64,000 bases of DNA. Source: Bdellovibrionales bacterium. GTDB taxonomy: Bacteria; Bdellovibrionota; Bdellovibrionia; Bdellovibrionales; UBA1609. Where the stretch lies: positions 128,001 to 192,000 of the forward strand of contig JAWLHR010000001.1 of NCBI GenBank assembly GCA_041690295.1. Reading direction: 5' to 3'. Shown here piece after piece: positions 47,386 to 58,659 of the stretch. The position numbers and the translations under genes were made by a program. Numbering within the stretch: position 1 is the first letter of the stretch; every line of letters begins with the position of its first letter. Under the pieces are notes generated by a model. That model had not been told where the DNA came from. It did no database searches and saw only the letters and a list, made by a program, of their open reading frames with translations.

Positions 47386-49386
47386 ATGAGCGATTGGAAC
47401 ACGCGAAAATCGGCGGAACTCTACGGGATCAATTATTGGGGGGCCAACTTTTTTCGCATCAATGATCAGGGCAACGTTGAAGTCAGACCCAATGATAAGG
47501 TTCCGGGCCTTGATCTTTATTCGCTCGTGCAAGACTTGCAGGAACGAGGCATCCGTTTACCCATCCTCTTGCGTTTTCCCGACATCATCAAATCGCGCAT
47601 CGAATTGTTGGCCGGCTGTTTCGCGCGCGCCATTGAAGAGGCCAAATACAACGGAGTCTACAAAGGCGTCTATCCCATCAAGGTCAATCAGCAAAAACAT
47701 CTGGTCGAAGAGATTTTGGATTTCGGCAAGCAGTACAATTTCGGCCTTGAAGCCGGCAGCAAGCCGGAGTTGCTCATTTCGCTCGCGCAGATGGACTCGC
47801 CGAACGCGTTGATCGTCTGTAACGGGTTTAAGGATCTGGAATACATCGAAATGGCTCTGATCTCGCAGAAACTGGGCCGCAACACCATTATCGTGGTGGA
47901 CCGGTTCACTGAATTGCCGATGATCATCAGCGCCTCAAAACGCCTGAACATCGAGCCGCGGATCGGATTCCGGGTCAAATTGAACACGCCGAGCAGCGGC
48001 CGTTGGGCCGAAACTTCCGGAGCGAAGTCGAAATTCGGTCTGACTCCGTCGGAGATCGTGCGTGGCGTGGAAATCCTGCGCGCCGAAAACATGCTCAATT
48101 GTCTCCAGCTGATTCACTTCCATATCGGCTCGCAAATTCCCTCGATTCAGGCCATCAAGGCCGCGATCAAGGAAGGGGCGCGTTTTTACGCCGAAGTTTA
48201 CGCCATGGGCGCCACCAATTTGCAATTCATCGACGTCGGCGGCGGTTTGGGCGTGGACTACGACGGATCAGGCCGCTCCGACAGCTCGACAAACTACAGT
48301 GAACAGGAATACGCCAACGATATCGTGGCGATTCTTCAATCCATCTGTGACGAAAAGAAAATTCCCCACCCGGACATCATCTCCGAGTCGGGACGCGCGC
48401 TGGTGGCCCACTCCACCGCTCTCATATTCGACGTCCTTGGACATAACGAAATCACCATGAACGGCTACTCGTTGACCAATCCGGAAAAAGAATCCCGGCT
48501 GGTTCAGGACCTCTATGAAATTTATCGGTCCGTGAACAAGGACAACGTGAACGAGTATTACAACGATTTGGTGGAAAAGAAGCGCGATACGCTTCAACTC
48601 TTTACCTATGGAGTATTGAGCCTCGAACAGCGGGCCAAGGCGGAAGACCTTTTCCGCGCCATCGCCACGAAGATCGTCAGCATCGCGCGTGAAAACAGTG
48701 ATGAACTGGAAGATATCCGCTACGCCCTTGAGCAGGAGCTTTCGGACACCTACTTCTGTAACTTCTCGGTGTTCCAGTCCTTGCCGGACGCTTGGGCCCT
48801 GGATCAGCTCTTCCCGATCATTCCGATTCACCGTTTAAATGAGCGGCCGGACCGGCGCGCCGTTCTGGTGGACCTGACTTGTGATTCCGACGGACATATC
48901 GACAATTTCATCGATATCGAAAGCGGCGGCGCCCAGAAGTACCTCGAAGTTCATGCCCTAGAGCCCGGAAACCCCTACTACATTGGGGCGTTCCTGACCG
49001 GCGCTTATCAAGAGATTTTGGGTGATTTGCACAACCTTTTCGGTGACACCGATGCCGTGCATATTTCTATTACCGAAGATGGCGGCTATCACATTGATCA
49101 TGTGGTCGAAGGGGATGAGGTTAAGGAAGTCTTGCAATATGTTGAATACAACCGCTCGGATCTACTCGAACGCATCCGCAAGGCCACGGAAACCAGCATT
49201 TTGAAAGGCACGATTTCACGTTCGGAGGCCCGGCTTTTGCTGGAGCATTACGAACGCGGGCTCTCGAGCTACACGTATTTGACGGAAGAATCCGCCATGC
49301 CTTTCATGCCGCAACGAAAGGAGTTGTCGAATGGCACAAATGCAACGAACGGAATCAGTGGGGCCGATCAGCCAGTTCATCAGTAA
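47386..49386 (+). CDS. speA: Biosynthetic arginine decarboxylase
   Basis: YPIKVNQ (PLP Lys), EAGSKPE, HFHIGSQ, TCDSDG, GAYQEILG. Confidence 0.97.
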   Translation: MSDWNTRKSAELYGINYWGANFFRINDQGNVEVRPNDKVPGLDLYSLVQDLQERGIRLPILLRFPDIIKSRIELLAGCFARAIEEAKYNGVYKGVYPIKVNQQKHLVEEILDFGKQYNFGLEAGSKPELLISLAQMDSPNALIVCNGFKDLEYIEMALISQKLGRNTIIVVDRFTELPMIISASKRLNIEPRIGFRVKLNTPSSGRWAETSGAKSKFGLTPSEIVRGVEILRAENMLNCLQLIHFHIGSQIPSIQAIKAAIKEGARFYAEVYAMGATNLQFIDVGGGLGVDYDGSGRSDSSTNYSEQEYANDIVAILQSICDEKKIPHPDIISESGRALVAHSTALIFDVLGHNEITMNGYSLTNPEKESRLVQDLYEIYRSVNKDNVNEYYNDLVEKKRDTLQLFTYGVLSLEQRAKAEDLFRAIATKIVSIARENSDELEDIRYALEQELSDTYFCNFSVFQSLPDAWALDQLFPIIPIHRLNERPDRRAVLVDLTCDSDGHIDNFIDIESGGAQKYLEVHALEPGNPYYIGAFLTGAYQEILGDLHNLFGDTDAVHISITEDGGYHIDHVVEGDEVKEVLQYVEYNRSDLLERIRKATETSILKGTISRSEARLLLEHYERGLSSYTYLTEESAMPFMPQRKELSNGTNATNGISGADQPVHQ

Positions 49387-50323
49387 GCATTTCTTGCACT
49401 TCAATGCCGCGAGCCTGAAGGATGCGGCCGAAGCCTATCGTTTCCATGTGGAAAACGGCGGAAAAATGATGGTCACCTTGGCCGGAGCCATGAGCACGGC
49501 CGAGCTCGGAATTTCGCTCGCCGAAATGATCCGGCAGGATAAAATTCATGCTATCACCTGCACCGGAGCGAATCTTGAAGAAGACGTTTTCAACCTTGTG
49601 GCTCATGAAGACTATGTGCGCGTGCCGAACTGGCGCGAATTAACCGCCAAAGATGAAATGGCCCTTCTTGAGCGCCACCTGAACCGGGTGACAGACACCT
49701 GCATTCCCGAAGAGCAGGCCATTCGCCGGATTGAGAAATACGTGTTGGAAAAATGGGACAAAGCCTCCAAAGCCGGCGAATCCTATTTTCCGCATGAGTA
49801 CCTTTACCAGATCTTCGCGGACGGCTCTTTGGAAAAGCATTATCAGATCGATCCCAAGAACTCTTGGCTTCTGGCCGCTTATGAAAAGAATCTGCCGATT
49901 TTCGTTCCGGGCTGGGAAGATTCCACCTTGGGCAACATTTTCGCCGGCCGGCTGATGCAAAACAGAGTCAATGCGGCTTGCATGAAAACTGGAATCCATT
50001 ACATGGCGGCTCTGGCGGATTGGTACACGAAATCCATTAATAAGCAGGGTATTGGATTTTTCCAAATCGCCGGCGGCATCGCCGGTGACTTCCCGATTTG
50101 TGTCGTGCCTCTCCTTGAACAGGATTTGGCGCGACCAACGCCGAAATGGGCGTACTTCTGCCAAATCAGCGACTCGACCACGTCCTACGGTAGCTATTCG
50201 GGCGCGGTTCCCAACGAGAAGATCACCTGGGGAAAACTGGATCTCGATTCCAAGAAGTTCATCATTGAATCGGATGCGTCCATCGTGGCGCCGCTGATCT
50301 TCGCTTACGTTCTCCGCCACTGA
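49331..50323 (+). CDS. Deoxyhypusine synthase-like protein (probable homospermidine-pathway enzyme)
   Basis: TGANLEED, GGIAGDF, GSYSGAVPNEKITWGK, ESDA; AAGGAG RBS inside speA. Confidence 0.9.
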   Translation: MAQMQRTESVGPISQFISKHFLHFNAASLKDAAEAYRFHVENGGKMMVTLAGAMSTAELGISLAEMIRQDKIHAITCTGANLEEDVFNLVAHEDYVRVPNWRELTAKDEMALLERHLNRVTDTCIPEEQAIRRIEKYVLEKWDKASKAGESYFPHEYLYQIFADGSLEKHYQIDPKNSWLLAAYEKNLPIFVPGWEDSTLGNIFAGRLMQNRVNAACMKTGIHYMAALADWYTKSINKQGIGFFQIAGGIAGDFPICVVPLLEQDLARPTPKWAYFCQISDSTTSYGSYSGAVPNEKITWGKLDLDSKKFIIESDASIVAPLIFAYVLRH

Positions 50324-50405
50324 CAATATTCGGCCTGATCCGCGTGCCGCGGATCGGCCAAGTCTCATTTAAACCGGGCAGGCCCTCAATTAAGAGGGCG
50401 CTTGC

Positions 50406-50422
50406 TTGGCAGCGAAACTGCA
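50406..50422 (+). promoter_or_regulatory. Putative sigma54 promoter
   Basis: TTGGCAGCGAAACTGCA, GG-N10-GC, 30 nt before ATG 50453. Confidence 0.6.
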
Positions 50423-50452
50423 CTCCAAGTCCGGGTTCAGGGACTTGGCCGC

Positions 50453-51343
50453 ATGCTAAAAACACTTTGGATTCCCTTCGCGATCTTCTTCGGGAGCGCC
50501 TCGTGGGCGCACTCTCGGGCCGGTGTGTGTGAGAGCTATCTTAGTTTTCCGGTACAAATCAGTCTCAAAGCCAATGCCCGAATCATCAACGACAACGACT
50601 TTACCGTGACTCGTCCATTGAAGGAATTGAAGACCTTACTGCCCGATGTTTTCGGCGCCTACTTGATCGATATCCAAATCGGGGGCACGTGGGTCGACGC
50701 GGGCGCCGGGCTCGCGCAGGCGCAAATTGATTTCTATGAACTCCACCGATCAAGCATTGAAACCATGGGCAGTCGCTTGATCGCCATCACCGCCACCCGC
50801 CCGCGAAGAGCTTCGGATCAGGTCCTGCGGCGAAGTTATCGAACCGCTTTTCAAAGAGCGTCCGATCGCCTGGATCATATGCTTGAGTTGGACCGTCCCT
50901 CCTTTCGCTACATGGAGGGGCGTTACATCGAGGACATCCCCACACATGAAATCGCCAACCCGGGCAGCGTCAGCCTTATCACGGATGTTTTTGGCCCTCT
51001 CAGCTATTCGCCCAGAATTGATCGCGTGCTTCGGGTTTATGCCGAAGCTTTGAAACCCGGTGGCGCGGTTTTCGTCCACATGAATAACCTAAATAGGGTT
51101 ATCGGTCCGGATAAACGAGTCATGTCCATCCCCGGGTTCATCAAATATTACTGTCGCGGGCTCGAGGTCCGTAATTATCCTGGCCGCTTTTGGTACCTGG
51201 TGCGCAATCACGATGAAATTTCAATACCGGCATTGGATTTGGAGCATTTACGCCCCGGCCGACCGCCAACTCGAAAATTTAGAATCCGATCGACGAACGC
51301 GACGAGTAACGATGCGAGCCATTTATTGAGAACCAACCCGTAA
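50453..51343 (+). CDS. Signal-peptide-bearing class I SAM methyltransferase-like protein
   Basis: MLKTLWIPFAIFFGSASWA signal; WVDAGAG motif I; LKPGG. Confidence 0.65.
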   Translation: MLKTLWIPFAIFFGSASWAHSRAGVCESYLSFPVQISLKANARIINDNDFTVTRPLKELKTLLPDVFGAYLIDIQIGGTWVDAGAGLAQAQIDFYELHRSSIETMGSRLIAITATRPRRASDQVLRRSYRTAFQRASDRLDHMLELDRPSFRYMEGRYIEDIPTHEIANPGSVSLITDVFGPLSYSPRIDRVLRVYAEALKPGGAVFVHMNNLNRVIGPDKRVMSIPGFIKYYCRGLEVRNYPGRFWYLVRNHDEISIPALDLEHLRPGRPPTRKFRIRSTNATSNDASHLLRTNP

Positions 51344-51363: not shown

Positions 51364-51822
51364 ATGAAAAAATTGATGTTGGCTCTGGTGATGATGTCGC
51401 CTTCGATCGTTATGGCTGGGTTGGAACGAGTCAAAAGCGAATCCGTTTACTCCGCGGTCAAAGCCTGCGTTGAGGCGGCCGACCGAAATTGCAAATTTCA
51501 CTTTCAAGTGAGCCGGGGCGTGAGCCGCCGCGAAGTTTGTCGCGCCGGCCGCAGTATCCATTCCTGTCACCTTGTTGATAAAGCGGTGGATATCTTCAGC
51601 AGCGAAGCTTGCATGGACCAGGTCGCCAATTGTTTGCGTGGAAGTTGGTCCACCCTTTATTGCTACAAAGATTGGGGCATCGGTGGATTTCTCGATTATA
51701 TGGAGTGGGGCTGCAGCGCCAATTCCCATCGCAACCATATCCATGTGCAACCGGCCTTCGGCTGTAAAAAAGCCGTGCGCCGCCTGTTGAAAGAACACGG
51801 TATTCGCTGCGGCCGAAACTGA
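51364..51822 (+). CDS. Secreted Cys-rich protein with peptidase M15/Hedgehog-DD-peptidase Zn motifs
   Basis: Signal peptide; SCHLVDKAVD and HRNHIHV; 10 Cys. Confidence 0.6.
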   Translation: MKKLMLALVMMSPSIVMAGLERVKSESVYSAVKACVEAADRNCKFHFQVSRGVSRREVCRAGRSIHSCHLVDKAVDIFSSEACMDQVANCLRGSWSTLYCYKDWGIGGFLDYMEWGCSANSHRNHIHVQPAFGCKKAVRRLLKEHGIRCGRN

Positions 51823-51864
51823 TCTCATTACGCTTTCAATTAGTTTGCGGACTGATTTTCACTT

Positions 51865-51885
51865 AATTGAAATCCATTCTCAATT
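51865..51885. promoter_or_regulatory. Fur-box-like operator
   Basis: AATTGAAATCCATTCTCAATT imperfect AT-rich palindrome 50 nt upstream of an iron-uptake operon. Confidence 0.7.
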
Positions 51886-51935
51886 CTAGACTCCAGGCGA
51901 CCAGGCGAGCATATTAGGCCGCACGGAGGATAATT

Positions 51936-52910
51936 ATGAAAAAGGGTATCTTGCTCGTCAGTCTTTTTTTCGCCAATGCGGTTTGGGCCGACCTAACCGT
52001 GTTCACCGATCGACCCCAAAATCGTTTCACCAATGTCGTTGAAGCTTTCACCCAAAAAACCGGTCAGAAAGTGACCTTTGTCGAAGGCAGCTATAAGGAC
52101 CTGCTGAAAAGTTTAGAGGAAAAATCAACCGCCGATCTGATCATCACCAAGGATTTGGTTTACCTCAATGAACTCACCGAGAAAGGGTTGCTGCAACCCA
52201 TGACCAGCACTCCTTCAGTTCAAAAAGTGCACTCGAGCATGCGCGATCCGAACAACAATTGGGTGGCGATTTCGTTCCGCGTGCGTTCCGCGGCTTACGA
52301 TCCCTCCCGGGTCTCCGCCAATGAACTCACAACCTATGAGGACTTGGCTAGCGCCAAGTGGCTGGGCCGTCTTTGCCTGCGCACCAGCAAAGCGGCGTAC
52401 AATGAAGCCTTGGTCAGCGAACTCATCTCCCGTTACGGCGAAGAACGGGCAAGAGCCATCGTGGAAGGCTGGGTCGCCAATTTGGCCGCGCCTCCGTTCC
52501 CCAATGACACAGCCGCCCTGGAAGCCGTGGCCAACGGCACCTGTGACGTCGCTATCGTGAATCACTATTATCTGGCCCAATTGGTGGCTAAAAACCCCAA
52601 TTTCCCGGTTAAGATGGCCTTCCTCGATCAATCGGGCTCGGGCGTCCATGCCAACGGAACCGGTGTGGCGATCGTGAACGACAGCCAGCAAGCGACTCTC
52701 GCTCAGGAATTTATTGACCTGCTTCTCGAAGATGACGCACAACTTGAGATCTCAGCCGCGCACTTCGACTATCCTGCTGTTGAAAATCTGCTGCCCAACA
52801 CGTTGATCAAGGACTGGGGGACATTCATCTTGAGTTCGGAAAACTGGTCGCGCCTCGGTCCTCACGTTGAAAGCGCGCGCAAGATGATGAAAGATGCCGG
52901 TTACAATTAA
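51936..52910 (+). CDS. Fe3+ ABC substrate-binding protein (FutA/FbpA-like)
   Basis: LCLRTSKAAYN, W..NL, ND, CDVAIVNHYY (Tyr-Tyr iron ligands), GVHAN. Confidence 0.88.
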   Translation: MKKGILLVSLFFANAVWADLTVFTDRPQNRFTNVVEAFTQKTGQKVTFVEGSYKDLLKSLEEKSTADLIITKDLVYLNELTEKGLLQPMTSTPSVQKVHSSMRDPNNNWVAISFRVRSAAYDPSRVSANELTTYEDLASAKWLGRLCLRTSKAAYNEALVSELISRYGEERARAIVEGWVANLAAPPFPNDTAALEAVANGTCDVAIVNHYYLAQLVAKNPNFPVKMAFLDQSGSGVHANGTGVAIVNDSQQATLAQEFIDLLLEDDAQLEISAAHFDYPAVENLLPNTLIKDWGTFILSSENWSRLGPHVESARKMMKDAGYN

Positions 52911-52919
52911 GGAGCGCAA

Positions 52920-53528
52920 TTGAATATTTCGCTTCGCCCAACCTATGTTTCATTAATCGCGTCAGGCTCGGTTCATCTGGGCCTGATCGTGCTCTTGGCG
53001 ATGGTGTCAAGCGCGCCTCGCGAGACGCGTTCTTTCGTTGAAATCACCCTCATGCCCTCGCCTGTGGCGAAAACTTCTGGAATTGAGTCGACGATCACAT
53101 CCACACCTTCGCCAATCACAAAAAACAGCACGGCACCTAAGACGGCGAAGGCCGCGCCTTTAATTTCTAAGCCGGCGATTAAAACAGATAACCAGTCCAT
53201 GCCCACCAACGCGGTTGAGCGTGGCGGCGCCGAAACCTTAAGCGCCGATGATCCGTTCGTTCTGGAAGTGGCGCGACTGCTCAACGCTCGCAAAAGCTAT
53301 CCTGAGGCGGCCCGCCGGCTTCGCCAACAGGGGCGAGTGAAAATCCGCTTTGAGATCGATCGCCAAGGGCGAATTCTTTCCTATGAAATCATCGAGAAAT
53401 CTCCTTACGAAATCCTCAACGACGCCGCCGGAAAGTTCATCCGCGATATTAACGGCTTGATCCCGATTCCCACCCGATCCGCCCGATTGACCTGGAGTTT
53501 TATCGTTCCGATTGAGTACAAACTTTGA
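52920..53528 (+). CDS. TonB energy transducer
   Basis: TM with SGSVH; Pro/Thr linker; YPEAARRLRQQGRVKIRFEIDRQG; AGGAG then TTG. Confidence 0.88.
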   Translation: MNISLRPTYVSLIASGSVHLGLIVLLAMVSSAPRETRSFVEITLMPSPVAKTSGIESTITSTPSPITKNSTAPKTAKAAPLISKPAIKTDNQSMPTNAVERGGAETLSADDPFVLEVARLLNARKSYPEAARRLRQQGRVKIRFEIDRQGRILSYEIIEKSPYEILNDAAGKFIRDINGLIPIPTRSARLTWSFIVPIEYKL

Positions 53529-53541
53529 TTTGAGGTTTGCC

Positions 53542-54819
53542 ATGCGAAAAATCTTACTGATTCCGATCGCGTTCACCCTAACCTTGAGCGCCTGTGATGA
53601 TTTTTTCAATAAAAGTAAAAACGCCCGGTCTCTGGGCGGCGATGACAAAAACAAACCCGCGGGTCAAAATCCCTTTCCGCCCGGCTTCGATTTCACGTCT
53701 CCACCTTTCACTGAGGCTAAAATGTTGGCGAATATCGGCGTAAAGGTGATCGCGCCCGCCACCGCCAAGCTGCGCTTACAACTGGAAGTGCTGGGTTTGG
53801 AGCTGCAATCACTGCGGGAACGTCTGGCGAACGAACGTCACGCCGACACATCGGCCGTTGAGTCGGCCTGGCGCTCGGCGATGATGAGCTATCATTTTTT
53901 GGCCGCGGCCGCCGTGGGTCCGATGACCGATAACCGACGTCAAATCGCGGACAATCTTTATGGTTGGCCCAGTTTTAATCCCTGCGGAATTGATATGGAG
54001 GTGGAAAGCCTCGCACGAACCGGTGTGATGAACGAACGGATCCTTTTCACCGCGAAAGGCCTCGCCGCGCTCGAATATTTAATTTTCGAGCCGACCCTCG
54101 GCACCCAATGCAACCCTTTAAACCCAAGATACAAGCCGGCCCACGAGTGGGCGCGAAAGGACGCTCGGCAAAAACGCGCCGACCGGATTCACTATGCCTC
54201 GGAAATCGTGAAGGATGCCGTTCATTACGCCCGCGAACTGGAACAGGCATGGGATCCCGAAGGCGCTAATTTTTCAAATACCCTGATTAACCGGACTCGT
54301 TATCCGGACCTACATAAAGCCATCAACGCCTTATCGGATGCGCTCTTTGCCTTCGAAGAGGTGAAGGACCGTCGATTGGGCCGCCCCATCGGCTTGCATC
54401 CCGATTGCACCGATGACTCGGGCAAATGCGTTACCGACATTGAACACCGCTGGTCCGGAGTTTCCATCGAAGCGATGCAAGCGCGGATGCGCGGGTTCGC
54501 CGCTGTGTTCATGGGCGCGGATTTCGGTTTGGACGACTTATTGATTTCCCAGAACAAGGCCTCGGTCAGCCAAGCCATCGAGCAAGCACTGAATCAAGTC
54601 TTGAACGCGGTGAATGAACTTCGATCGCTGGGAACCCTTGAGAACCAAATTAAAGATATGGATGTGGCGGCTTGCCGGGCATCGACCTCTGAAAATCGAC
54701 TGGTGCCCGTCTGCGCTTTACACGCGGATCTGAAGCGACTTTCCCAAGTGATGAAAATTGATTTTCTCGCGGCACTCTCATTGACCGCGCCACCCAGTTA
54801 CCAAGGCGATAATGATTAA
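53542..54819 (+). CDS. Imelysin-family lipoprotein lacking HxxE
   Basis: Lipobox LSAC; AWRSA, KGLAALEYLIF, IEHRWS, C-terminal GDND. Confidence 0.8.
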   Translation: MRKILLIPIAFTLTLSACDDFFNKSKNARSLGGDDKNKPAGQNPFPPGFDFTSPPFTEAKMLANIGVKVIAPATAKLRLQLEVLGLELQSLRERLANERHADTSAVESAWRSAMMSYHFLAAAAVGPMTDNRRQIADNLYGWPSFNPCGIDMEVESLARTGVMNERILFTAKGLAALEYLIFEPTLGTQCNPLNPRYKPAHEWARKDARQKRADRIHYASEIVKDAVHYARELEQAWDPEGANFSNTLINRTRYPDLHKAINALSDALFAFEEVKDRRLGRPIGLHPDCTDDSGKCVTDIEHRWSGVSIEAMQARMRGFAAVFMGADFGLDDLLISQNKASVSQAIEQALNQVLNAVNELRSLGTLENQIKDMDVAACRASTSENRLVPVCALHADLKRLSQVMKIDFLAALSLTAPPSYQGDND

Positions 54820-56992
54820 ATTCATTGGTTTGATTTTTTTGTTTTTGCCCGCGGCCCAAGCCCAAGAATCGGCCGACACGATTTTACCGACGATTGAAAT
54901 CTTCGGCGGTTCGACTGATGAATTGAACCGCCCCATGGAACCCGCCAAAGTGAGTCGCCGGAAAATCGAACAGTACCAGTACACGGACGTCAATCGAGCG
55001 TTGAAGAACACGAGCGGCGTCTACATGCGCGAGGAAGACGGCCAGGGACTGCGGCCGAACATCGGCTTGCGCGGGACCTATCCGGATCGCTCAAAGAAAA
55101 TCGTTATGATGCAAGACGGGATCTTGATCGGCCCGGCGCCTTATTCCGCGCCCGCCGCCTACTACACCCCGAGCATGGTGCACACCGAATCGCTGGAAGT
55201 TTATAAGGGCTTCGCGGCGGTTCCCTATGGTCCAAATTCCGTGGGTGGAGCGATCCATTACCTGAGTCCTTCCATTCCCTTTTCCAATACTTATTTCATC
55301 GATGGTGGCTACGGAGCCTATGACCTCCGTCGCCTCAAACTCGGCACCGGTGGCCCGTTCGGCTCGCACGGCTACCTGGTGGAAGGATCACGGCTGCAAA
55401 CCGAAGGATTCAAGAAACTGGACGGTGGGGGAAAAACCGGATTCACGCAGAATCATGTACTGGGACGATTTGAATTCAAAATTTCGGAGCGGCTTCGTTC
55501 GGAACTCATCACCGACTACGCCGACGAGAATTCCCATGAAACTTATTTGGGACTTTCGGCGGAAGATTTTGATCAATCACCCTATCGGCGATATTCCGCA
55601 TCGGCGCTGGACAAAATGGAATGGCACCACAGCCGGTTTCAGCTGCGCAACACCTTACAGCTGAGCGGCCAAACTTTCTTGGAAGCCACGATTTATCGCA
55701 ATGATTATGAGCGCACCTGGTACCGTCTGAATGGTTTCCGCAACACCAATGTGAACTTGCACGACATTTTGAACGACCCGACCGGAACCAACGCGGACTA
55801 TTTGAATGTTCTTCGTGGCGATGCGGACTCGGCGACCCTGGGGCCGAACGGCGACCTCATTGTCTTGAACAATCATCGCACTTACTTCAGCCATGGCCTG
55901 CAAACCCGGCTGCTTTCGCAAATCGAAGCCGGCGGGCAAAAGCACGCCTTTGAGTTCGGCGTGAGAATTCACCAGGACCAAATTACTCGTGACCACACCT
56001 CGGACAGTTACCAGATGATTTCGCGACGTCTGGTGAGAACGGCCGACCCCCGCCAGACCAAAGATCAAAACCGGGACTCCGCCACGGCGCTGACACTGAC
56101 GGCAAGTGACAACTGGCGGATTGGAAGCATCACCTTAACTCCCGTTCTGCGCTATGAAGACATCAACTTCAAATTCAAGAATAAGCTGACAGGCGCCTCA
56201 CACGATCGCAATGACAGTTTCCTTGTGCCCGGCTTCGCGGTAACCAAGGCTTGGGCGGAAAACTATTCCGTTCGGGCGAGCGTCAACAAAGCCGTGACCG
56301 CGGCCGGAATCAGCTCCGACGGGACGGAAAAGCGGGAAAACGCCACCAACTATGAAATGGAATTCAAATATCGGGATCCCCTTCGCTCGCAAGAAGCCGG
56401 CCTACTGGCGTTTTACAATGATTATCAAAGGCTCACGGGAACCTGTTCAGCCTCAAGCGGCTGCCAATCCGCGACCGACGAACAATTCAATGGCGGCAAG
56501 GCGCGAGTTTGGGGTTTGGAAACAGGCGTGGCCAAAGGATTTCAAATTCAAAAAGTCCATGTTCCCGTTCAAGCCAACGCCACTTTGCTTTGGGCGGAAT
56601 GGGCCAGTGAATTCACCACGAGTTCAAAGGAGTGGGGAAGCAGCGCCCCGCTCCTTGGAGCCTCCACCATCCGTTCGGGAGATCCGCTGCCGTATGTGCC
56701 GCGCACACAATACTCGGTTTCCATCGGTACCGAATACGGAAAATTCAAACAGGATTTTTCGATCACATATCAGGGAAAAGTGTACGATCAATCGGCGGAC
56801 CATTTACGCCGTGAAATCGGCGCCTATGGTGTGGTGGATTGGGCCGCCTCTTACCAGATTTCCAAACACAACCGGATGACCGCTCGAATCGACAATATTT
56901 TAGATCGCCGATACGCCGTTTCGGCCCGACCATTCGGCCTTCGCCCCGGCAAGCCGCAAAGCTTCCATGTCGGTTGGATTTACAGGTACTAG
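54812..56992 (+). CDS. TonB-dependent outer-membrane receptor (FecA-like)
   Basis: EEDGQGLRPNIGLRG plug, YGPNSVGG, IDNILD, terminal WIYRY. Confidence 0.93.
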   Translation: MIKFIGLIFLFLPAAQAQESADTILPTIEIFGGSTDELNRPMEPAKVSRRKIEQYQYTDVNRALKNTSGVYMREEDGQGLRPNIGLRGTYPDRSKKIVMMQDGILIGPAPYSAPAAYYTPSMVHTESLEVYKGFAAVPYGPNSVGGAIHYLSPSIPFSNTYFIDGGYGAYDLRRLKLGTGGPFGSHGYLVEGSRLQTEGFKKLDGGGKTGFTQNHVLGRFEFKISERLRSELITDYADENSHETYLGLSAEDFDQSPYRRYSASALDKMEWHHSRFQLRNTLQLSGQTFLEATIYRNDYERTWYRLNGFRNTNVNLHDILNDPTGTNADYLNVLRGDADSATLGPNGDLIVLNNHRTYFSHGLQTRLLSQIEAGGQKHAFEFGVRIHQDQITRDHTSDSYQMISRRLVRTADPRQTKDQNRDSATALTLTASDNWRIGSITLTPVLRYEDINFKFKNKLTGASHDRNDSFLVPGFAVTKAWAENYSVRASVNKAVTAAGISSDGTEKRENATNYEMEFKYRDPLRSQEAGLLAFYNDYQRLTGTCSASSGCQSATDEQFNGGKARVWGLETGVAKGFQIQKVHVPVQANATLLWAEWASEFTTSSKEWGSSAPLLGASTIRSGDPLPYVPRTQYSVSIGTEYGKFKQDFSITYQGKVYDQSADHLRREIGAYGVVDWAASYQISKHNRMTARIDNILDRRYAVSARPFGLRPGKPQSFHVGWIYRY

Positions 56993-56995
56993 CTT

Positions 56996-57919
56996 ATGCT
57001 GTGGGATCGTTTAAACGTTTGGTGGGATCGGTTTTTGGTGCCGGTCGACGATCCGGGATCGCGGCTTTTCCATCTCAACATCGTCGTGAGCCTCCTTCTG
57101 GTCGCGCTTTGGCTTTTCTGGACATCACGCAAATCAATGTGGCCGGAGTTCATCCGCCTGGTCTTCAGGCGAAAATACTGGTGGAACCGAAGCACCAAGC
57201 TCGACTATCAAATTTATATTTTGAACGGAATTCTCAAAGTTCTTCTTTTGATCCCATTCTTGGATTTCAGCTTCGAGATCGCGCGAATGGTAGGGCACGG
57301 CTTGGTTTTCTTGAACGGCGGCGAGTTCATGGGACTCAAAGCCTCCACCACTCACCTTTTCGCGTTCACCGTCGTCGCTTTTGTATGGGATGACTTCTTG
57401 CGCTTCTTTCAGCACTTCATCATGCACCGGATTCCTTTTTTATGGCGTATCCATTCCGTTCATCACTCGGCACGCGTCCTGACGCCCGTCACTTTATATC
57501 GCAATCACCCGTTGGAATCGGCCATCGCGACCTTGCGCAACTCTTTGAGCCTCGGTGTGATGACCGGATTATTCCTTTTTCTCTTCGAGGCGCGCTTCAG
57601 CGTTGTGACTTTGTTTGGTGTGAATATTTTCGGTTTTTTATTTAATCTTCTCGGCGCGAACCTTCGTCACAGCCATGTCCCGATTTCGTTCGGCCCGTTC
57701 TTCGAAAAGATTTTTATCAGCCCCAAACAACATCAAATTCACCATTCATCCAACCCGGACCACTTCGACCGGAATCTAGGCGTTTCCTTGGCGATCTGGG
57801 ATCGCCTGTTCGGGAGCTTGATATTGTCACAAGAGGTCGACAAAGTCCGCGTCGGCCTTCCGGAAAGCCACCACCAAAGCTTGTTGGGCGAGATGACTTT
57901 ACGCCGGAAATCGAACTAG
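56996..57919 (+). CDS. Sterol desaturase/fatty-acid hydroxylase family membrane protein
   Basis: His boxes HFIMH, HSVHH, HSH, HQIHH; WDRLFG. Confidence 0.9.
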   Translation: MLWDRLNVWWDRFLVPVDDPGSRLFHLNIVVSLLLVALWLFWTSRKSMWPEFIRLVFRRKYWWNRSTKLDYQIYILNGILKVLLLIPFLDFSFEIARMVGHGLVFLNGGEFMGLKASTTHLFAFTVVAFVWDDFLRFFQHFIMHRIPFLWRIHSVHHSARVLTPVTLYRNHPLESAIATLRNSLSLGVMTGLFLFLFEARFSVVTLFGVNIFGFLFNLLGANLRHSHVPISFGPFFEKIFISPKQHQIHHSSNPDHFDRNLGVSLAIWDRLFGSLILSQEVDKVRVGLPESHHQSLLGEMTLRRKSN

Positions 57920-58497
57920 CTTAGGCGATCGTCACAGACAATCTGCCTGCCGTTCGGCTTCGCAGTCGAAAGGTCATCACCTCTGAAATCCCGCACGCGC
58001 ATTACCCGGGGCGAACTCAAATTGGAGTCGATCAGGAGTTCATACACTGTGATCATCGCCGGCGATTCATGTCGATCGATGTCGATAATCTTGAGAAGTG
58101 AGCCGTCATAGGAAATATTGATATCGATTTCTTCAAGGTCAGCGCCTTCGAAGCGAAATTCGCTCACTTGCAGAGGGTATTTGTCGGCTGGTATGGCTTG
58201 TCCCCTGGAAATGAGGCGCTCAAACTTCAGCGATTCCGCAATGAGCTCAATATACACGGAGTTATCAGCTTGGCGCCTGATATTTATGATGCATGAGCCC
58301 CCTTTTAATTCCGCATAGTCTTCTGAAGCATAGGTGATGGGAAGCGAGGCTTCCCGCTGCCAAGGACTTTCATCGGCACTCTGAATCTTCGATATCACCG
58401 CAGATTCGTGGTCCCCACCGGGTGAAATGCGTTCCGCACCGGCGTCCACGGTCGCCGATAGAACCGATAGTAAAGTGAACAGTTTAATCAATTTCAT
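57916..58497 (-). CDS. Secreted acidic hypothetical protein
   Basis: Signal peptide MKLIKLFTLLSVLSATVDA; fills gap between convergent operons. Confidence 0.6.
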   Translation of the reverse strand: MKLIKLFTLLSVLSATVDAGAERISPGGDHESAVISKIQSADESPWQREASLPITYASEDYAELKGGSCIINIRRQADNSVYIELIAESLKFERLISRGQAIPADKYPLQVSEFRFEGADLEEIDINISYDGSLLKIIDIDRHESPAMITVYELLIDSNLSSPRVMRVRDFRGDDLSTAKPNGRQIVCDDRLS

Positions 58498-58659
58498 TCT
58501 AACCTTCCCAGGCTCCGCCAGCACAAAATCTCCAAACCTTTGGATCCACTAAATTGCAATCGTGCCAAAGCGACCATCTTAAGTGCGGACCGGGTATATC
58601 TAATTTTGGGTGTAATGATTTTATACACAGTGACAAACCACGCGCTGAGATTACGGCAC

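Follow-up and report, generated by a model that had tools for sequence, protein, structure and literature searches.

Imelysin-type iron uptake operons have been described in P. aeruginosa (PA4370-PA4373) and V. cholerae (VC1264/VC1266); an IPPA-type imelysin bound neither Fe3+ nor haem in a thermofluor test, and the available part of that account mentions neither TonB nor a hydroxylase (PMC3143127). For periplasmic ferric-binding proteins, three tyrosines define class III FbpA, and M. catarrhalis needs these residues for growth on transferrin (PMC10182148). In Caulobacter, the function of CciT requires the cytoplasmic oxygenase CciO, which was proposed to make or alter an organic ligand, a cell-tethered siderophore being among the authors' models (PMC12004947). 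The present study concerns a five-gene operon in a window of 64,000 nt (the whole stretch of DNA analysed, positions 128,001 to 192,000 of contig JAWLHR010000001.1, forward strand, assembly GCA_041690295.1) from a Bdellovibrionales bacterium. It encodes an FbpA/FutA-type substrate-binding protein (SBP), TonB, an imelysin-like lipoprotein, a FecA-like TonB-dependent receptor and a membrane protein of the sterol-desaturase family (hereafter the desaturase). The operon bears on what imelysin proteins bind and what they do (PMC3143127) and on the need of iron receptors for partner oxygenases (PMC12004947).

Taken together, the data are best explained, at about even odds, by a Fur-controlled system for ferric-chelate import with FbpA buffering, FeoAB entry and a di-iron enzyme that makes or alters the ligand. 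In this pathway the TonB-driven receptor, aided by the imelysin lipoprotein, would import Fe3+ on an organic ligand, and class III FbpA would hold the Fe3+ in the periplasm. After reduction, Fe2+ would cross the inner membrane via the separately encoded FeoAB. The desaturase-family protein would be an intact, cytoplasm-facing di-iron oxygenase acting on the ligand, not a carrier of iron. The system is a compact one, in which the operon holds the only TonB-dependent receptor of the genome and an enzyme that follows imelysin across three phyla.

The desaturase-family enzyme and its link to imelysin

Among 77 loci fetched with the desaturase, mostly from related Arcobacteraceae, imelysin was found in 71, di-haem oxidoreductase (DHOR) in 55, a MauG-like cytochrome in 54, the SBP in 19, the receptor in 19 and FbpB in five. 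Forty further loci were reduced to 36 by removing three duplicates and one row outside the clade; a script detected imelysin in 28 of these, and one more had been missed by the open reading frame (ORF) filter. In a sample of 301 genomes of the phylum, the desaturase clade was matched in 45 at E 1e-40 (43 kept, two at ~1e-42 dropped). The imelysin profile matched 46 genomes, of which 34 were kept, their matches having E < 1e-60 or extending as far as the GDND terminus; 12 weak partial matches were dropped, and the single one of these 12 that was inspected was a different, DHOR-linked imelysin. All 34 genomes with the GDND-type imelysin carried the desaturase clade, and the remaining nine of the 43 desaturase genomes have another imelysin. 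Where a desaturase locus showed no imelysin, the genes for SBP, imelysin and receptor were present elsewhere in all five genomes examined further, indicating that the link survives separation.

In a quick tree, the imelysin-linked desaturases formed one group of 62 rows (Shimodaira-Hasegawa-like approximate likelihood ratio test, SH-aLRT, 98). Control loci of paralogous desaturases, picked from weaker matches, had no receptor, SBP or GDND imelysin (0 of 20), and two of the 20 had an ICMP-type imelysin and DHOR a few genes away. The pairing of desaturase and imelysin was seen in six families. Gene layouts differed: SBP-(TonB)-imelysin-receptor-desaturase occurred in several orders, next to DUF4856-imelysin-receptor-desaturase, imelysin-DHOR-imelysin-desaturase-MauG and DUF4856-desaturase-fbpABC. 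A first-pass annotation of this DNA had raised the question whether the desaturase tracks with its operon partners and excludes permeases; the tracking of imelysin and receptor was seen, but the exclusion of permeases was not, FbpB being present in six loci.

Two other candidate patterns were rejected. What looked like another desaturase in Arcobacter loci was produced by the clustering: the protein is a MauG-like cytochrome, linked via joined ORFs. The desaturase is also no strict replacement for DUF1513, which was not found in 39 of 50 clade genomes and was present in 11.

The protein has complete FA_hydroxylase His boxes, with ten histidines (H140, H144, H153, H156, H157, H171, H225, H246, H249 and H250) invariant in 124 of 124 rows. 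Four further residues, D70, R136, R181 and R224, were conserved in the clade and differed in most of 14 paralogues. Charged conserved residues sit in predicted membrane helices; the His boxes and the C-terminus are predicted to be cytoplasmic, and no residue in the predicted periplasmic loops (101-117 and 198-207) reached 80% conservation. The AlphaFold2 model had a pLDDT (predicted local distance difference test) of 93.8. Scs7p was the top entry in the fold search, with a non-significant score (E 1.6, TM-score 0.28), and no match had a Z of 5 or more. A PDB sequence search gave no real match, the Atlas search returned the family name and nothing more, and a plasmid search returned one distant match.

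OlsE (NF052566) was the nearest named bacterial family (E 1.4e-13), and the genome encodes an OlsF-like amino-lipid acyltransferase (L217:2480-3661 (-), E 1e-70, under cut-off). Together with those genomes in which the desaturase lies away from the genes for uptake, this would suit an OlsE-like hydroxylase or desaturase that alters the envelope in iron starvation, sharing the Fur operon and taking no part in uptake. We regard this explanation as unlikely: the OlsE score was 50.9 bits against an equivalog cut-off of 475, the patchy presence of the desaturase follows imelysin even where the two are unlinked, and the paralogous desaturases are not found in this context.

In the first-pass annotation, modification of a lipid or metallophore by the desaturase was given as an alternative function, and it is this alternative that fits the evidence best. 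The clade-specific D70, R136, R181 and R224 suggest an anionic substrate, the likeliest being an anionic membrane-bound molecule, e.g. an amino-acid lipid, which would give a cell-tethered chelator. Neither IucA/IucC nor a non-ribosomal peptide synthetase (NRPS) condensation domain was matched in the genome. A bolder proposal, which we consider less likely than not, is that these membrane di-iron oxygenases are a clade dedicated to producing an iron chelator that stays tethered to the cell, probably an amino-acid lipid bearing a hydroxyl group, and that imelysins with a GDxD end pass it to a receptor or porin. If true, Bdellovibrionota, Arcobacteraceae and marine Gammaproteobacteria would have in common a high-affinity pathway for iron that needs neither NRPS nor NRPS-independent siderophore (NIS) synthetases, and the long-sought ligand of imelysin proteins would be identified.

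Of 113 clade loci, 98 encode a protein whose last residues are GDxD or DGD; in this genome such ends occur in just three of the 5644 ORFs. It was also found that a 105-aa secreted protein with a GDxD end, like imelysins, adjoins the desaturase at L139:7404-7721. This protein recurs in loci L138, L140, L142, L156, L158, L159, L200 and L006, and had no Pfam, NCBIfam or Atlas assignment.

Passage of iron across the inner membrane

The best PDB match of the SBP was M. catarrhalis FbpA (7li0). In the alignment to 7li0, Y155 pairs with Tyr141, and Y211/Y212 with Tyr197/198 (numbering as in PMC10182148); these tyrosines and R26, R115 and R117 were invariant in all 12 aligned rows. By the three-tyrosine ligand criterion the SBP is a class III FbpA, and Fe3+ binding is predicted. 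The FutA/FbpA identity given to it at first is thus upheld by the 7li0 match and the invariant ligands.

The genome, of 2.88 Mb and 99.89% complete, was searched for a cognate fbpBC, as the first-pass annotation had proposed, and none was found: its 17 PF00528 matches included no FbpB, five FbpB queries gave no tblastn matches, and the FbpB profile likewise found nothing. A 513-aa PF00528 frame on contig C22, FbpB-like in length, was rejected as an amino-acid SBP-permease fusion. FTR1 was found in none of five genomes including the host (the control was positive in 4 of 14), and FecCD and Nramp had no matches in the genome. One ZIP protein is encoded. The genome also has feoA-feoB, separate from the operon, and 26 of the 28 genomes in which FeoB was sought encode it (one genome being counted under two handles). 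Both FeoB-negative genomes have FbpB-type matches, such that FeoB or FbpB is present in all 28.

Binding proteins without an adjacent permease are frequent in Bdellovibrionota. The FbpB profile matched 74 of the 301 genomes, and 32 matches were kept at E < 1e-55, each adjoining FbpA. Fifty of 82 FbpA genes had no adjacent FbpB; they lie in 49 of the 301 genomes. The desaturase is missing from 18 of these 49, and both desaturase and FbpB are missing from 15. In the 20 such loci that were fetched (L185-L204), FbpA mostly stood alone amid unrelated genes. The commonness of FbpA without FbpBC points to a route from FbpA to FeoB.

These counts bear on the main proposal of the first-pass annotation, in which the desaturase is the inner-membrane acceptor or transporter of FbpA-bound iron and replaces FbpBC. 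A desaturase lies within 8 kb of 23 of the 50 FbpA genes without FbpB and of one of the 32 with FbpB, which favours that proposal, as do the absence of FbpB from this genome and from 11 of 15 sister-operon genomes, and the conserved charged residues within membrane helices. It was not borne out, however, and we hold it to be very improbable. FbpB and desaturase lie together in five of the 77 loci and in one of the 36 further ones, and FbpB occurs in eight of 43 desaturase genomes compared with 24 of 258 others. Strong FbpB matches were present in all 14 Arcobacteraceae/thioglobid desaturase genomes and in four of 15 Bdellovibrionales genomes with the operon. The genomes with a lone FbpA and no desaturase, the presence of FeoB or FbpB in every genome tested, the intact oxygenase His boxes and the unconserved periplasmic loops also argue against a transporter. 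Modelling FbpA and the desaturase as a complex gave a score of 0.01 in both runs, with no controls folded, and is taken to speak neither for nor against the proposal.

In some genomes the enzyme and a neighbouring protein form a single reading frame. The 34 long proteins among the best 150 representatives included joins to the SBP (6), imelysin (5), receptor (4), MauG (4) and unrelated enzymes (3). Natural single ORFs of desaturase plus FbpA or a MauG-like cytochrome were located at L007:3007-5247, L140:7567-9624, L045:8986-11052 and L055:9013-11082. Each of the 24 joined ORFs that were inspected has, C-terminal to the enzyme domain, a hydrophobic segment resembling a signal peptide. We interpret the joins as read-through into whatever exported gene comes next, which agrees with a C-terminus in the cytoplasm; possibly the products are polyproteins cut by signal peptidase. 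The joins were not accepted as proof that the joined proteins bind each other, since the partner is simply the exported gene that happens to follow.

A redox function was also considered, in which the enzyme passes cytoplasmic electrons to FbpA-bound Fe3+ or to DHOR/MauG and feeds Fe2+ to FeoB. No known ferric reductase family (PepSY_TM, PF16357, Ferric_reduct) was found in this genome; DHOR and MauG-like genes are common in the Arcobacteraceae-dominated loci, and the single ORFs described above fuse the enzyme with SBP or MauG. We nevertheless judge this function decidedly unlikely. The conserved histidines are all in the di-metal boxes, with none in mid-membrane as a haem ligand would be, and the joined ORFs keep the signal-peptide-like segment and also link the enzyme to receptors and unrelated enzymes. 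Moreover, three operons of the same genus are headed by a gene, separate from the desaturase, for a PepSY_TM-like membrane protein of 190 aa that contains two His (L163:2185-2757, L137:4217-4792 and L001:3239-3814). Its Pfam matches were weak and under cut-off, and it was not found in this genome. We take it to be a candidate ferric reductase, presumably similar to VciB.

Several observations weigh against ligand synthesis or modification by the enzyme followed by entry through FeoAB, the absence of a ferric reductase family being one of them. The topology was derived from helix positions and Lys/Arg content, not from model coordinates, and R23, 98% conserved, belongs to an N-terminal stretch that is possibly exposed to the periplasm. 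No imelysin was matched in four gammaproteobacterial genomes whose clade matches were weaker (G079, G122, G185 and G295). The clade also occurs in porin/DHOR/MauG-type operons without a receptor, the TonB-dependent receptor being present in just 19 of the 77 loci, and such operons are not simply explained by a ligand made for the receptor. Finally, the co-occurrence counts overstate independence because the genomes are related.

Operator, gene layout and neighbouring genes

The Fur-like palindrome reported ahead of the operon was borne out. A palindromic Fur-type motif was built from relatives, 49 of whose upstream regions were used and the window left out, and among its matches across the 2.88 Mb genome the site at the head of the operon had rank 16. 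This motif scored 17.9 bits upstream of fur, which is present in the genome, 12.2 bits upstream of feoAB and just 6.1 bits upstream of bacterioferritin. It is not highly specific, because many higher-ranked sites fall inside genes. An overlapping weaker site begins at 51855. Compared by eye, 14 of 17 positions agree with the commonest delta-proteobacterial form of the Fur box in Table 3 of PMC545781. The fit to the E. coli Fur consensus was poor (11 of 19), and a degenerate Fur pattern of our own design had no matches in the window. The operon is likely to be under Fur repression, given the fur gene and the box upstream.

ORF coordinates and Pfam searches (table 1) confirmed the five tightly spaced, co-directional genes, with spacings of 9, 13, -8 and 3 nt, and backed the identity of each. 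The reported absence of FbpB/FbpC, FTR1, DHOR and DUF1513 held for the operon and was extended to the genome, where none of these was found. Promoters and terminators were predicted about as often as expected by chance, and no terminator-like site was found 3' of the desaturase gene. The closest related loci are those of Bdellovibrionales, and tonB is missing from several sister operons.

Table 1. Operator and genes of the iron operon (positions in the window).
Feature	Coordinates	Strand	Evidence
Fur-type operator, palindrome, 52 nt before SBP start	51866..51884		Motif learned from relatives, 16.4 bits
Class III FbpA/FutA-type periplasmic Fe3+-binding protein (SBP), predicted	51936..52910	+	SBP_bac_6 5e-20; PDB 7li0 E 4e-68
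TonB	52920..53528	+	TonB_C 4e-16; TIGR01352 over cut-off
Imelysin-like lipoprotein, IPPA/PA4372 type (GxxxxE, no His), GDND end	53542..54819	+	Peptidase_M75 (PF09375) 2e-23
FecA-like TonB-dependent receptor	54812..56992	+	TonB_dep_Rec 6e-27 and Plug
Sterol-desaturase/FA-hydroxylase-family membrane di-metal enzyme	56996..57919	+	FA_hydroxylase (PF04116) 8e-24, over cut-off

The start of the imelysin gene was taken as ATG 53542; the ORF-finder frame begins at TTG 53512. The protein belongs to the imelysin superfamily by its PF09375 match, lipobox and GxxxxE motif, and the lipobox Cys, GLAALE and the G-D-x-D end are conserved among relatives. A PDB sequence search with it gave no real match, and queries and profiles for DHOR and ICMP-type imelysin had no match in the genome. 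In the N-terminal part encoded at 53542-53610, the lipobox Cys is directly followed by Asp, where most relatives have Ser. In enterobacteria, Asp at this position is an inner-membrane retention signal. The receptor, the sole PF00593 match in the genome, matched the FecA plug at E 1e-14 and is 32% identical over its full length to the Alteromonadaceae receptor of locus L021.

Divergent from the operon, and with a common intergenic region, lies an ORF for a 152-aa Cys- and His-rich, secreted-looking protein (51364-51822 (-)). Neither this ORF nor the flanking ORFs at 50402-51343 (+) and 57916-58524 (-) had a Pfam or NCBIfam match, the last overlapping the desaturase stop by 4 nt. Two tandem overlapping ORFs at 47386-50323 (+) presumably encode an arginine decarboxylase and a deoxyhypusine-synthase-like protein.

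Comparison with described systems

The five-gene cassette is apparently undescribed, as had been suggested. Literature searches on imelysin with a desaturase or hydroxylase, or with TonB-dependent uptake, gave no account of it (subscription journals, regulon databases and most supplements lay outside their scope), and it is not mentioned in the main text or searchable supplements of an A. macleodii iron transcriptome.

Compared with the M. catarrhalis FbpABC system (PMC10182148), a three-tyrosine Fe3+-binding protein again accompanies a TonB-dependent receptor and a surface lipoprotein, downstream of which it is encoded in that species. The difference lies at the inner membrane, where FeoAB is the likely step in this genome, FbpB/FbpC not having been found. 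EfeUOB shares an imelysin-superfamily periplasmic component; in this case there is no FTR1 match in the genome, and the operon has no EfeB-type or cupredoxin part. With OlsE and the FA_hydroxylase family (Scs7p), the enzyme shares His-box motifs and PF04116, but it scores far below the OlsE cut-off and forms a separate clade with its own conserved Arg/Asp and iron-operon context.

In the CciT-CciO, PiuA-PiuC and Fiu-YbiX pairs (PMC12004947), as in this operon with its predicted Fur control and predicted oxygenase, a Fur-regulated receptor is co-conserved with an iron-dependent oxygenase, and the inner-membrane transporter is outside the locus. The comparison is one of how the systems would work only: the enzyme in this operon is a membrane His-box di-metal protein, not a soluble 2-oxoglutarate/Fe(II) dioxygenase, the receptor resembles FecA, and imelysin and FbpA are further components.

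The operon resembles PA4370-PA4373 and VC1264/VC1266 (PMC3143127) in its IPPA/PA4372-type GxxxxE lipoprotein, Fur-type box and lack of EfeU. It differs from the PA4370-PA4373 type in having no ICMP-type imelysin, DHOR or DUF1513, and adds FbpA, TonB, the FecA-like receptor and the desaturase-family gene. Because all its parts belong to known families, it can be regarded as a variation on imelysin-type iron uptake, in which a single enzyme is strictly retained and still unexplained.

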